Positions 1,726 to 63,069 of a stretch of DNA of 64,000 bases are shown here, piece after piece (the first letter of the stretch is position 1; each line of letters starts with the position of its first letter). The position numbers were made by a program, and so were the translations under genes. Origin of the DNA: Moniliella sp. 'wahieum' (taxonomy: Eukaryota); contig RSEE01000044.1 of assembly GCA_003971905.1 (NCBI GenBank), positions 124,001 through 188,000 on the forward strand, in the 5' to 3' direction. Under the pieces are notes generated by a model. It was given only the letters and a program-made list of their open reading frames with translations. It made no database searches and was not told the DNA's origin.

Positions 1726-4210
1726 GCTGGGCAGGATGGACAAATGGTCCCGATAGGATGGGCAGGGCTGGGAGGAGAAGGAGAAGGAGGAGATGCGAGA
1801 GGTGTTGATGGTGGTCGACCAGACCGGTGGGCGTCGGGCAGAAGTAGACAATGGAATGGAAGGACGCGCCAAAGGAGGCTGGAGCAGCACGGCGTGCGGC
1901 GGGTACTGGCGCCATGCCGCAGAGGGGCGGGGCAGCAGCGGGGACCAGCCATCGACTGTGCGTCCCGGCCGAGCGCGAGCTGCTGCTGCCGTGGCGGCGC
2001 GGCGGCGCAGCAGTGGGGTCTGCGGCGTGCTGCCCAGTGTTTCGCGACGCGTGACTGACGTCACCGTGCAAGTGACATGCGACACGTGAGTCTCACGGCT
2101 GAGCTGGTGCAGCCACGCTGGGGTTCACACGCATGTCACACGCCAGTGCCTCAGTGTCCTGCTCGGTATCAGCACTCTGGTACTCGCACGCAACCTTCAA
2201 AGCTCTGCGCCTCAGCGCGGCCAACAAGCGCCGCCAGAGAACGCCACCGACTGTGTCCTTACTTGCTTCCAAAATCCAAGTGCAATCATTTGTGACCGGT
2301 GACGTGCATGACAGGGCATGGCACACAGAAACTCCCTCACCAAATGCACCCATGCCTGTGAATGTGACGCAGACAGCTCTTGCATGCTGGGACGGCCTGA
2401 GGCCTTTGACATTGAGAAGATCGATGACCTCGTGGCAACCAAGGGCAGCCACCGACCGTCGGCCACCTCCCACGGCTGCAAGTGCAAGAAAAGGCCAAGC
2501 CCCACAGCCCAAACGAGTATATACCACACGCAAGACGCCGGCGCAATCGGGGAAGCACTTAAGCACCCGAGCACAGAGACCCCTGGTCGGCCCAGCGCCA
2601 GTGTACACGGCGTATCACTCAAACATCGGGCGGTGATTCCGGCGTATATTAGTGATCGATGATCAATCGGTTATTTATCGCGGTAATCGAAAGCGCTAAT
2701 CTAATCGCAATCGAAATAATAACAACAGCAGAATCGAGCTCAAGCGTGGGCGAGAGCATCCGATGCCTGGGCATGAGCGGCAGCTTGTCGCTTCCAAAGC
2801 CTCCGCTGAGCCTCCGCAAATGGCCTGATCGCCTTAAAAGCCCCTTAGGCCCTTAGGCCTTACTGCTTAGAGCTTCAAGCTTCAAGTAGTGACGTTTGTG
2901 ACCAGTATTGTCACTATTTGTTCAGCCAACGGGTGTCACGCATGTCAAATGTCAGCGGTCGCTTGGCAGGGAACATCCGTTTTGTGGCATGGACCCTTGT
3001 GACCTGGCGCCCCGGGGCCACGCTAGTGCCAGGCCACGCGCCACACTAAGCGCCACCCGAACGCCACGCGAGTGTCACACGTCACGCGCCGCCACGTTCG
3101 CCATTGCAGGGAAGGGGGAGCGTACTGGGGGTTGCCTATCTACGTTCTACGTTCTACGACGTTGGTGTGCTTCCTCCAACGTTGCAACAGATAGTTGCTA
3201 GCGCGATTCGTCGGACATTGGTTGCTGTCGCACCGCCGTGTTAGAGGAGAGCCGTGCAGCAGAACCTTCCCAGCATCCAGGAGGCGCTTGGAGCTTGATT
3301 TTTTCATCACGCGTCGCCTTTCTCCGCTCCCGTTCGCTTTACCGCGTTATCGACGTCACGCGTCACGCGTCATACGTCATCGCGCGTCTTCTGTAGCAAG
3401 ATTCTGCAAGACCAGGCAAGATGCCTCGCACAAAGTCTTTTCCTGGCCTTTCCCAGCTCCTGGAAGAAGCTCCAGAGGTTCCCACCTGTTCCCTCAGGCC
3501 TCATCGCTTCAAATGTCAGAGAGCTTCAAGCCCAGGGGCCCAACGGTGCAGTGTTCAGTAGTACGTTTATCGATGAGGCCTCCTGGGCCTGATCTTTTGA
3601 AAGCGGCGATTACTCCGTCCGAGCAGCCTACGTTGCGACTTGCAACCATTACTAGCTCATTACTAGTTACCAGTTACCTAGTTACTAGCTTTACTGGTTC
3701 TCCCGGTTAGTTCCAGGTCGCACGTATCCCCTCCGGCTAAACATGCACTAGTCGCACGGGAGGCCCTGTGGGGACGCCGGACGGACCGCGGACGAGCAGC
3801 ACGAAGAGCAACCCAGAGCAACCCATTAGGCCTAGGCCTCTCGCCCTGAGGCAGTCTCTGCTATCATGCGTTTCATGCTCATCCAATACCATCTACACCC
3901 TCCCCGCCCCGATGCCCTGCTCGGCGATGTCCATAGCATGCGCGGGGCCATGCGTGCCAGTATCGAGCTTCGTAACGTGGGGCTAGCTTCATCAAAATTT
4001 CGTATCCCGACCGAAAGAACCCTCGGGCCGGTTTGCATGCACGATGCACCTGTGGCCGGACTACTCACCCGCACCGCTCATCTCTACAGCGCTCGCATTG
4101 CATGCCCTCAGAACCCCTCCCTGACCCACCCAACCCTCCATTATACAGAACACAATCGCATCAGTCAACAGCCCAATGACGCTTAACGGGGAAGGTCCAG
4201 TTTCACTCGG

Positions 4211-7200
4211 CTACATTTCTAAACAATTTTGTGCGTCGAGTTTGGTGTCAGAAGGAAAGGACAAGGGTACCTCCCAAAGTCGAAGGTTAATGCACCGTCT
4301 CGCCTTCCTGGGGGCTCGGCATGGCCAATGGCTCGACCGCCGCTCGAGCCGCATCGTCCGGATTGCGCGTTGCCATGGGGGCAGCCTCATGCCGGGAAGT
4401 GGCACATTGTGCATGTGAGAGGAAGGTGTCTCCTCTGCCTCTGGCTCGGCCTCAGCCTCAGCCTCCGCCTCAGCCTCAACCTCAGCTCCAACCTCAACCT
4501 CCGGCTCTACCTTCACCTCGGGCGATGCGGGCCGGGCTGGGTTCAAAATCGGTGCGGACACCGGCTCGTCGCCGCGTAAATGCAAGGGCACCGTGCGTTC
4601 ATACACCTCATTAAACGCTTCTTCAATCTCGTTGCATCCACCCAGACGAAAGAGCCTTCTTGGTTGTACGTCCGTGCATTCTCGCACAGCAACCGAATCT
4701 CGGCCCGACACGTAGCCGCGTCCGGTACAACCGTCGATCCACGCGCGCTTGATCGTCTTGAGGCAAATGGGCTGACGGATCAACAGACGATAATCAGGGT
4801 ACTCATGTTTGTTGGGCAAGTCCACAAACAACAAACATCGTTTCCGCCCCGATCCGGGCTCACTCAATTGTTCCACCGCCTTGTAACAGGGCAACAACGC
4901 TTGCGTTACACTATCCCGCCGCGCCAGGTCCGCGGCCTGCGCCGCCTTTTTGCGCCGAGCGACACCACCGTTGGTTGTAGGACCTGCAGCAGCGGGCGAA
5001 GTGCCCGAGTCGGACAGGGAGGTACGACGGCGTTTCCGTGTGACCGACACGTCCTCCTCGTCGCTCTCGTCCCGCGCTCGCCGTCGTGGCTCCGGCGTCG
5101 CACTCGTCGTCTTGGGCGGACGACCTCGTCCCCGCTTGACCGGCACAGCCGCCATCTCCTCATCACTTGTAGCAAGCGCCGCGCGAGCAGCTGCATTGGC
5201 GCGGCGCTTTTCAATTCGCCTCCGCTTGGCTGCCGCGAGCTCTTCGGGATCTTGGTCGTTTTCAATCGCGTTCAAGAACTGGTCCTCGGTCAGATCGTCG
5301 TTGTAGCGGATGGTGGTGTTGCGCGTGCGTCGCGAGGCCGGGGCCTCGTCCAACACACGCGTCTTGCCCGCTTCCTGGGCAGCAACCGCTTGCTCCTCGT
5401 ACCACGATTGGAACATGTCGGGCAATTCGGGCTCGGTGATCATCCGATCCGTAGGGAAGCACCCCTTGTGCTCGGTTGCAGTCCACCACGACTGATCTGC
5501 GCCCCGCCGTTCTGTATCCATTTTGGCAAAGATCGCTTGCTCCTCCTCCGACCGCGCAATGATCTGGTTCAACTCGTCGTCACCAATCGTTGCGTCACCC
5601 ACATCATCTTCGTCGTCCGCGGACTCGAGCATGGCCCGCAATAACGTATCCCGCTCCTCGTTGCTGGCATTGTTGTCAAACTTACCCGCCTGAATCACCT
5701 TGCCATCCATGTCGAGTTTGCGATGGGCAATCTCCAGGATCTTTTCCTCCACGCTCTTTCTCGGTGATGAGACGAAGAATGCGTACCTCAAGGGTTTGGC
5801 CAATCCGATGTGCACGGTCTTGCGCTTGCAAGTCCTGGTGTGGGTTCCAGTCCGAATCAAAGATAATCACCGTGTCGGCCGACTGCAAATTGAGACCCAA
5901 CCCGCCAGCACGGGTCGAGAGGATAACATAAAGTAGGGTGAGTTGGGTTGGTTAAATTCAGCCAGAAGACGAGCCCGTTCCTCGGCCGAGTGGTACCGTC
6001 AAGACGAAGATAGGTAAGGTTGCGCAAACGCAAAAAGTCCTCGATAATATCCATGCACTGATCCTGGAAGAATACCAACACCTTTCAAAGAGAATATCAC
6101 CGTCAGTCAGTGTGCCAGCTCAGCCAGCTCAAGATTGGGAAGGGGGAACGTACCCTGTGGCCGGTCGCCTGGAGTTTGGGCAACCCGATCCAAAAGCTCA
6201 AACTTGCCTGCAACACGGAAAATGTCGGGCCCCGTTTCGTGGGTGGGATTGATGGCATCCTCCACTTCGGGAAACATGTACGGGTGGTTACATATCTTGC
6301 GTAGCTGCATCAGCGCATTTTGTAGGCCCGCGAGGCCATGACCCGCCTTACTGCCACCATCATGGACACCATTGATGAAGAGTGTCTTGTGCTTGACCAT
6401 CTGGTTGTACAGCCTCGATTGCAGCACCGATTTGCGGCACTTGATCACCTTCTCCACCTTGTCCGGCAGTTCGGATGCCACATCTTTCTTGAGGCGACGC
6501 AGGAGGAACGGTCGGAGCACCTTGTGCAAGCGCTTGATGATCAAAAGTTGCTCTTCCTCATTGAGGTGCATGTCGTTCCCATCGCTCCCACCGGCATTGG
6601 CAAAGGGGGTATTAAACCATTCATCAAAGCTTTGAACAGAGTTGAAGATGCGAGGCAGGACAAAGTTGAGCAGTGCCCAGAGTTCTGGGAGACTGTTTTG
6701 CAGCGGCGTGCCCGTCAACAGCAAACGGTAACGGCTCGTGTAGTTCTGGGTCAGCGTGACGGACAATTTGGACGAAGCGTTCTTCATGCGATGGCCCTCA
6801 TCGATGATCATGTGCACCCAGCGGATCTTGCCCAGCGAGTTCTTGTCCCTGATGATAAACTCATAAGTCGTCAACAAGACCTGCCAGTTGTCTTGTTTAA
6901 GGACGGTCTGGCTCAAGTGCTTGCGTGCATGGCGAGATCCGTTGTAAACCACCACATTTACGCTCGGTGCCCACTTGCGGAACTCGTTGACCCAGTTGGT
7001 AAGGGTCGAGAGGGGAACAATCACCAGGTAAGGCGCGCGTTGCTGCTTGGTCTCAATCAAATACGTGATCAAGCTGATAGTCTGGATCGTCTTTCCCAGC
7101 CCCATCTCATCAGCCAGAATGCCATTCAGGCGGTTGTTGTACAGGGACACCATCCACTGTAGACCTTTGAGTTGGTACTCCTTCAGTTGCCCACCAACCA

Positions 7201-62248: not shown

Positions 62249-63069
62249 GCCGCTCGCTGTGGTCCCTAGGGATCGCGTTCAAAATTTTGCTTCCTTTTTC
62301 TGGGCCATGGTACGGGTGGAGGTGGTGTGCGAGGCCTGTTCAGAGGAGCGACAAGGGTGCAAATGCTGTGTTCTGTGAAGCGAGTAGGGCTCTTTAACAC
62401 TGCACTCGCCAGCGTGGCTCGTCGTGTCGAGGAAGCGTCTCCCTCTTTTTGAATCCATACTGGCATTCGCCAAAAAAACACAAAACACAGGGACGTTGGC
62501 GAGACCCCCGATCCCTTGGGGCTATCGATGCGGAGAGATAGAGGAGGAATCGCCACAGATAGTGAGTGCTATCGATGACGGGGTCGGGGATGCTTGGGGG
62601 GTGAGGCAGGGTAGAGGACGGAACAGCAAGGGAGAACGATGACGAACAATACTCTGTACGGCGCTTCTCATCAGCTTCATCCGTACCCCTAGGGCTAGAT
62701 TCAATTTGGAGACGAATTTAATGGCGGCAGCCAGGGTTCCTGACTTACTGGCAACACCATTGGTCTCCTACTAGGGGGAGCGCGAGTGGTCTGCAAATAT
62801 GCCGGGGCGAGCGAGGGGACGTCGGTGATCGCCACCCGCTCGGCCTGATCCTCGTAGGCGAAGAGGAGGAGTGACTAGTGATGTAACCAAGGCCGAAGGC
62901 CTATGAATCAGCCTGAAATCGATGATCGATCTGATGCGATGCTATCCCATTTTGCGGAGTGTTTCGTGCTTTTTTTACGGTGCATTAGCTAATCATCCTC
63001 GCGCCATCCTTCTCGCCTCAGAGGCCGAAGCAATGGACTTAGGGGCGACGGTATTCGTGTCTTGCCACG

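Follow-up and report, generated by a model that had tools for sequence, protein, structure and literature searches.

Seven-base gains at T-N-A sites in the intergenic DNA of Moniliella sp. 'wahieum' as candidate footprints of a hairpin-forming transposon

Excision through hairpins on the flanking DNA, which the host then opens to leave footprints with palindromic (P) nucleotides, is described for hAT, Transib and MULE transposons and for RAG (PMC5499845, PMC5873905). The coding joints of V(D)J recombination and the products of Transib (RAG1/Transib, placed in the CMCT clade with EnSpm/CACTA, Plavaka and ESTA) have in common with the elements described here, as we read them, the flank hairpin, host opening, end joining and palindromic P nucleotides (PMC5499845). 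Ac/Ds, a hAT element studied in plants, Saccharomyces cerevisiae and Candida albicans, likewise leaves short deletions and P nucleotides at the joint, and its footprints in C. albicans have short P tracts and low variety (PMC5873905). P-nucleotide footprints are thus already known, from single loci and laboratory assays. We analyzed a stretch of 64,000 nucleotides from Moniliella sp. 'wahieum' (contig RSEE01000044.1, positions 124,001 to 188,000; hereafter the window), whose intergenic DNA contains many copies of a short unit, a 5-base duplication ending in T-N-A (TNA) that encloses two mirrored bases. With a probability of about 0.62, we consider these elements to be repair scars of the insertion and excision of a cut-and-paste, flank-hairpin DNA transposon with a 7-base target duplication.

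Next to those of the RAG/Transib systems, the products described here vary much less and are found throughout the genome. In the open-licence literature we found no report of a single stereotyped footprint that reaches about 740 per Mb, has a flush mirror and a 7-base target centred on TNA, and seeds tandem arrays. The intergenic heptamer of Ustilago maydis, a fungus of the same subphylum as the host of the window, shares the 7-base period but is one fixed, non-palindromic unit present in both orientations. No paper with that motif in Ustilago was found in the same literature.

Geometry of the unit

The unit reads yzTNA, then the reverse complement (rc) of yz, then yzTNA again, so that seven bases are gained. 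Counting both strands of 538,168 non-redundant bases, we found 578 units against 1.7 after shuffling; the same form with ANT, CNG or GNC centres occurred 12, 16 and 18 times. This set comprised contiguous pieces and the flanks of repeat loci, with loci chosen on the motif excluded. Forms with one mirrored base were as frequent as in shuffled sequence (39 and 40), and those with three numbered 3 against 0. The A after TN was required (578 versus 119), and the 119 exceptions were mostly A-to-G changes, like those at other decayed positions. Of 244 elements, 196 carried the two TNA as direct copies with the same middle base; in 26 they were inverted. Among 115 isolated elements, the repeat extended at least two bases past TNA on one side in 98; the commonest class (36) extended by exactly two bases on one side and none on the other, and 60 were too short for a tandem 7-mer copy.

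The cores vary because each is built from its own flank. Fifteen of the 16 possible flank dinucleotides were used, with TA in 0 and TT in 3 of 257 elements, and the middle base of TNA tracked the background (0.78-1.09). Flank GC was also depleted among the scars (0.47-fold). The depletion of TA, TT and GC may reflect a preference in the target or in hairpin opening.

When two mirrored bases were required, the duplicated length was five bases in 540 cases, six in 71, seven in 62, eight in one and nine in five, which makes a sharp ceiling at seven. The 9-base form, yzTNArs-[rc(yz)]-yzTNArs, occurred 55 times against 0.3 after shuffling (0, 0 and 4 for the control centres), and an 11-base form with mirrored bases from both sides six times against none (three against none in the controls at non-palindromic targets). 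The whole 4-base palindrome was always retained at one end, while the other end retained zero, one or two flank bases, and the palindrome centre was even in the main, 8-base and 9-base classes. This product spectrum leads to a symmetric target, NN-TNA-NN, with the mirror plane flush at its edge.

A polymerase might produce much of this without any transposon, by folding back or switching template at a nick, if a flap of five bases with TNA at its end primed on itself or on the displaced strand, added two bases and was ligated. The commonest product would follow exactly, with T pairing A around N. Flap hairpins can give duplications with short spacers, as in the 'alternative duplication with spacer' of Okazaki-fragment repair (PMC13142317), and yeast breaks produce short foldback inversions (PMC11724301). 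Short-range template switching and flap duplications also share a duplication with an inverted spacer (10.1101/2020.03.06.980458), but the fixed geometry and the strict T-N-A belong only to the elements described here. Moreover, folding back predicts all four X-N-X' closures and variable arm lengths, whereas only T-N-A with exactly two bases was seen. It cannot yield the 8- and 9-base forms, in which the mirrored bases follow an unpaired r or rs, or the ceiling at seven. In 984,873 bases taken from 80 further fungal loci the signal was absent, the four centres giving 7, 7, 5 and 8; these were metagenome loci around STH1, mostly ascomycete, with two short Tilletia-like ones. Folding back by a polymerase is therefore distinctly unlikely.

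An earlier note on this stretch had described intergenic chains of 6-base palindromes, A-N4-T, joined at a 7-base period. All 11 of its examples were located at the positions it gives, although in its '4-unit chain' at 51292-51318 only three of the four hexamers are palindromic (ACGTGT is not). The palindrome chains and their spacing are real, but the actual unit (the 5-base duplication with two mirrored bases at an NN-TNA-NN target) had been overlooked. The enrichment proposed there was borne out: the window has 13 lag-7 pairs of A-N4-T palindromes, against means of 0.3-1.6 in shuffled controls that preserve 2- to 6-mers (maximum four pairs in 210 shuffles). Both the class and the period were specific, since palindromes starting with C, G and T formed 1, 0 and 3 lag-7 pairs in the window and A-N4-T pairs at other lags (non-multiples of 7) numbered 0-3. 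Three TNA in phase were found 29 times in the window against 4-7 in shuffled sequence. Across 264 kb of contiguous genome there were 52 lag-7 A-N4-T pairs against four expected and 4-6 for other palindrome classes, and no comparable lag excess was seen there for 4-bp and 8-bp palindromes. Genome-wide, five TNA in 7-base phase occurred 3761 times, compared with 1002 for the reversed ANT control.

The elements of the window are listed below, with the strand where one applies. Comparisons are with its homeolog on contig C32, at ~93% identity; a second homeolog, C4, is at ~78%.

2873..2886, CTTCAAG repeat; 35 bases (five units) longer in the C32 homeolog
3354..3379, chain TCA CGCG TCA CGCG TCA TACG TCA, including ACGCGT-c-ACGCGT; C32 homeolog one 7-base unit shorter
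3660..3688, cluster TTA CTAG TTA CCAG TTA, containing the 8-base form AGTTAC-CT-AGTTAC at 3672-3685
15600..15611, plus strand, minimal scar TGTCA-CA-TGTCA; short site in the C32 homeolog
21051..21075, AGGCCT-T-AGGCCT followed by TGA TGCA TGA
23838..23854, TCA CATG TTA ATAT TCA, two differing cores in phase
23990..24001, plus strand, minimal scar TGTGA-CA-TGTGA; short site in the C32 homeolog
25113..25128, plus strand, 9-base form with 7-base duplication CGTCAGC and mirrored bases CG
29726..29741, plus strand, 9-base form ACTCACA-GT-ACTCACA
31808..31833, chain TGA CATG TGA CATG TGA GCGC TGA; CATG units missing in the C32 homeolog
32449..32463, chain TTA CTAG TTA CTAG
34301..34317, chain TGA TGCA TCA TGCA TCA; homeolog one unit longer
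35562..35573, plus strand, minimal scar AATGA-TT-AATGA; short site in the C32 homeolog; in the window a 9-base form comes next, at 35576-35591
36876..37114, plus strand, solo long terminal repeat (LTR) of family B with a 5-base target duplication, host of the gain at 36970; an aid to dating, not a cause
36970..36981, plus strand, polarised gain TCAAG-CT-TCAAG in that solo LTR; none of the other 28 aligned copies has the seven bases
51267..51287, TGA CTAG TGA GATC TGA; GATC unit missing in the homeolog
51292..51320, chain TGA CGTG TGA CATG TGA CGCG TCA; CATG unit missing in the homeolog
51351..51470, cluster of TGA TTAA TGA, TGA TCGA TGA and TGA CCGG TGA with a (TGATCGA) chain
51646..51670, plus strand, two consecutive 9-base forms GATGACA-TC-GATGACA
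62918..62930, ATCGAT-G-ATCGAT, a single TGA flanked by palindromes on both sides, outer TNA absent

The 35 extra bases of the CTTCAAG repeat in C32 (at 2887) are read as a scar that grew through slippage or through renewed events at the site. The outer TNA missing at 62918..62930 has probably decayed.

Direction, rate and distribution of the gains

Indels between C44 and C32 showed a peak at seven bases (41, against 29, 28 and 15 at five, six and eight bases). Eighteen of these 41 overlapped an element and at least 10 had the exact form, all at TNA. The intergenic DNA of the C4 homeolog did not align with the window and gave no polarisation of indels. Direction was obtained from repeats. Only four of 987 distinct elements sat in repeats that have two or more further copies, and none of the four was present in those copies (three by the set rule; for the fourth, both other copies were 9-10 bases shorter). 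Another LTR family had one copy with two side-by-side gains that were absent from the remaining copies, and a fifth polarised example, recognized by eye at an LTR start, had the gain in one of three copies. The elements are gains; the sample is small, and no case pointed to loss. No element was present in LTR family C (30 copies, 106 differences) or within the first 350 bases of family A (30 copies); these copies are young and uninformative.

One family A copy (L280, G000:C40 ~450900) carries a 10-base perfect palindrome, centred right after TCA and with no duplication, at the same site where another family A copy gained two scars. We read it as another kind of hairpin-type scar, at a hot spot.

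Arrays do vary in unit number between homeologs, as expected if chance 7-mers had simply slipped. As noted earlier, however, simple slippage does not explain the pattern: the 60 short isolated elements and the polarised gains are non-tandem, and plain 7-base duplications are about as common at TNA as at ANT. Slippage is refuted as the origin, for which we give it almost no credence, and is retained as an amplifier.

The density of about 740 per Mb corresponds to 196 scars in 264 kb, of which ~13 are expected by chance from the non-palindromic count. Extrapolation from the 264 kb gives ~45,000-50,000 scars in the genome. The rate was ~1 scar per 200-400 substitutions, which would require few mobile copies. 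Scars were also clustered, with 42% of gaps below 200 bases, compared with 13% when TNA sites were drawn at random from genic and other DNA alike.

The intergenic location proposed for the pattern held. Within approximate gene intervals, 60 of the 61 TNA-palindrome-TNA elements of the window lay in 41,149 non-genic bases and one in 22,851 genic bases. TNA sites themselves split 803:1721 between genic and other DNA. The near-absence of elements from genes would follow from the shift of reading frame that a 7-base gain causes.

The earlier note had offered two alternatives, a recurrent hairpin or fold-back repair footprint at TNA, or phased half-sites read by a protein. The flank-mirrored cores argue for the first. 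Under the second, selection would have kept arrays of TNA half-sites for a DNA-binding protein to occupy in promoters, and the elements' clustered, almost entirely non-genic distribution and the prevalence of G or C as the middle base would suit it. But the TNA pairs are direct far more often than inverted, the cores are templated by flanks of nearly every dinucleotide, and the middle base stays at background. There was also no extra conservation, as 42 of 1030 bases within elements differed compared with 323 of 7926 in the flanks, and LTR copies have private gains. An origin as selected binding sites is thus very unlikely, although some scars may later have been used as such.

An artefact of long-read basecalling or polishing has to be weighed as well, because the assembly is noisy (1328 one-base indels between homeologs in 143,657 aligned columns) and genes are frameshifted. 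An identical element was nevertheless present at the matching homeologous place, ~7% apart, for 66 of 105 elements in C44. Errors would also hardly spare genes, where only one of 61 elements lies, or be private to single repeat copies despite the shared context. We regard this explanation as barely tenable.

Excision footprints and the search for a source element

From the observed products, their direction as gains and their distribution, we infer the following enzymatic steps. A transposon would insert at NN-TNA-NN (yzTNArs) by a 7-base staggered attack, and gap filling would duplicate the seven bases. On excision, each flank would then be sealed as a hairpin that ends flush with the edge of the duplication, in the style of RAG or Transib. 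A host nuclease of the Artemis/Pso2 type would open a hairpin two bases off its tip, giving a 4-base palindromic overhang made of two flank bases. End joining would retain this whole overhang and trim the other end, mostly back to the A. If r or rs were kept at the trimmed end, the 8- and 9-base forms would result, and mirrored bases from both sides would give the rare 11-base form. A later event at the same TNA from the opposite side would place a different core in phase. At 51267..51287, which may be such a case, the left core mirrors the left flank and the right core mirrors the right flank. A palindromic target would give identical units, from which slippage or repeated events could build chains.

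We favour insertion followed by excision because a duplication first and a flush hairpin second is that order of events. The sites also have the general features of excision footprints: the duplication is retained on both sides of the joint, P nucleotides mirror the flank, and there is a gain relative to the empty site. RAG with Artemis gives an even, flush palindrome centre and two mirrored bases. The even centre seen here would accordingly fit RAG/Transib better than Ac/Ds, whose palindromes centre on the complement of the unpaired base adjacent to the element and are odd (PMC5873905). The MULE element Muta1 forms flank hairpins like those proposed (PMC5499845) but differs in its 8-9 base duplication and mostly precise excision. 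Duplications of seven bases are reported for hAT7 of rust fungi and for Kyakuja (KDZ), and the latter lacks inverted repeats, so that our inverted-end scans would miss such elements (PMC12730594).

Other cutters named in the earlier note fared less well. Topoisomerase II cuts with a stagger of 4 nt and Spo11 with one of 2 nt, and neither matches the duplication ceiling at seven. A topoisomerase II-like 4-base duplication with three mirrored bases was rejected, as the A after TN is required. Topoisomerase I cutting at T was also rejected, as it would invert the middle base, which was not seen.

The likeliest source would be a family of EnSpm-like elements (CMCT clade) whose duplication, at seven bases, is unusual. 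A profile search gave a match to the Tnp2-type EnSpm-like transposase domain, PF02992, above the cut-off on C17 (E 1e-12) and a weak match on C34. The C17 gene has a homeolog, with no stop seen in the compared pieces of the two genes:

G000:C17:556181-559500 (L285) and G000:C62:280500-284200 (L289), EnSpm-like (PF02992) transposase gene pair, fixed and collinear

The region upstream of this pair is crowded with scars. For the C17 protein, no relatives of greater length were found and no solved structure was matched. The C17 gene is a fossil that shows the presence of the clade, but it is not proof of authorship of the scars.

Several observations weigh against the transposon. Known CMCT elements duplicate 2-5 bases of target (PMC12730594), and among the EnSpm-like elements of Cryptococcus, CNIRT6 duplicates three and CNEST two (PMC12810828); the scars imply seven, outside that range. 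In ~1 Mb (1.4% of the genome), inverted-end scans and a repeat census gave only LTRs, LINE-like ends and Helitron-like ends, and no candidate that combined inverted ends with a TNA-centred duplication of seven bases. LTRs, a LINE-like insert and deletions accounted for the nine large gaps between homeologs, and such a duplication was present at none of them. Plain 7-base duplications centred on TNA were not enriched either (29, against 24 for ANT). The C17/C62 pair differs at 21 synonymous and 73 non-synonymous sites, as under neutrality, and its protein has H at the presumed place of the first catalytic D. Around the C17, C62 and C34 matches we found no inverted ends or CA..TG termini, and at the C17 gene no duplication. 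Profiles for hAT (PF05699) and KDZ (PF18758), run on this noisy assembly and without a positive control, had no match in the genome, and the MULE profile (PF10551) had none in the same noisy assembly.

The joints themselves raise two more difficulties for the transposon. A doubly mirrored subclass, yzTNA-yz-rc(yz)-yzTNA (for example at window ~52243-52256), made up 19 of 122 nine-base cases with mirrored bases, ~7 times any other dinucleotide (~2.6 each). To arise, it would need a hairpin to close and open twice over at the same end, for which a single excision is insufficient. Double-mirrored joints were rare, so hairpins at both ends are weakly supported. The scars are assignable neither to hAT nor to canonical EnSpm, as each fails a defining test.

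Some of these observations would suit a host enzyme instead. A domesticated transposase or another nuclease might cut open chromatin at NN-TNA-NN with a 7-base stagger, after which the end would be filled, sealed into a hairpin and reopened without any element. Tens of thousands of extrapolated scars with no matching element in ~1 Mb, products that look one-ended and the clustering of the scars are consistent with such a nuclease, and the doubly mirrored subclass is suggestive of more than one round of sealing. A duplication followed by a flush hairpin, however, would be natural for a transposon and would otherwise need two unrelated activities. The sole resident transposase gene examined evolves neutrally, and the observed rate could be explained by very few mobile copies. 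We consider an element-free nuclease unlikely, if still a serious alternative; were it nevertheless at work, it would be a built-in mutator that continually rewrites the promoters of the lineage with new palindromes.

Host genome and meaning of the scars

The assembly comprises 69.5 Mb in 223 contigs. Genes in the window have introns, and the host is a fungus. The STH1/Snf21 ATPase of the window, identified by Pfam, is 72-77% identical to its counterparts in Ustilaginomycotina (Tilletiaria, Thecaphora, Malassezia and Ustilago) and at most 71% identical to those of other fungi. STH1 matched six genomic places at 74% or more, and an exon that we take to be RPS9-like matched ten. At least three groups of homeologs are nested, with pairs at 93-96% and a third copy at 77-78%, a pattern suggestive of a Ustilaginomycotina lineage whose genome doubled, or that hybridised, more than once.

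At 39545-48776 of the window, a gene that we presume from its peptide motifs to be acetyl-CoA carboxylase-like is broken across many frames; this split gene and the one-base homeolog indels indicate an unpolished long-read assembly. An ornithine decarboxylase antizyme domain (Pfam) lies at 30465-31400; antizyme genes usually require a programmed frameshift. A ribosomal protein cluster at 17060-19630, presumably RPL39-like, RPL21-like and RPS9-like with the latter two divergent, has kept its linkage in several homeologs.

Three solo-LTR families are present in the window (10033-10382, 24640-24994 and 36876-37114), with target duplications of 4-5 bases and at least 40 copies each among the scored matches; the first two LTRs are missing from the C32 homeolog. 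Elsewhere, inverted pairs of LTR copies form long imperfect palindromes (L212:936-1683 and L259:999-2374). A short repeat at L218:2933-3029, L175, L230 and L014 ends with a GC-rich hairpin and CTAG-like bases, which we take to resemble a Helitron 3' end.

One stereotyped footprint appears to rank among the main sources of the intergenic sequence in this fungus, and its precise mutational signature can be used for screening other fungi. If the elements are excision scars, the genome keeps a countable record of past transposon traffic although the elements themselves are mostly gone, and the scars seed its 7-base tandem arrays. They would be evidence of a transposase that makes flush hairpins and has a 7-base target centred on TNA. 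They would also show, as a natural record, how a basidiomycete opens hairpins and joins ends, with exactly two mirrored bases and one overhang retained, and would mean a steady input of new 6-base palindromes into its promoters.

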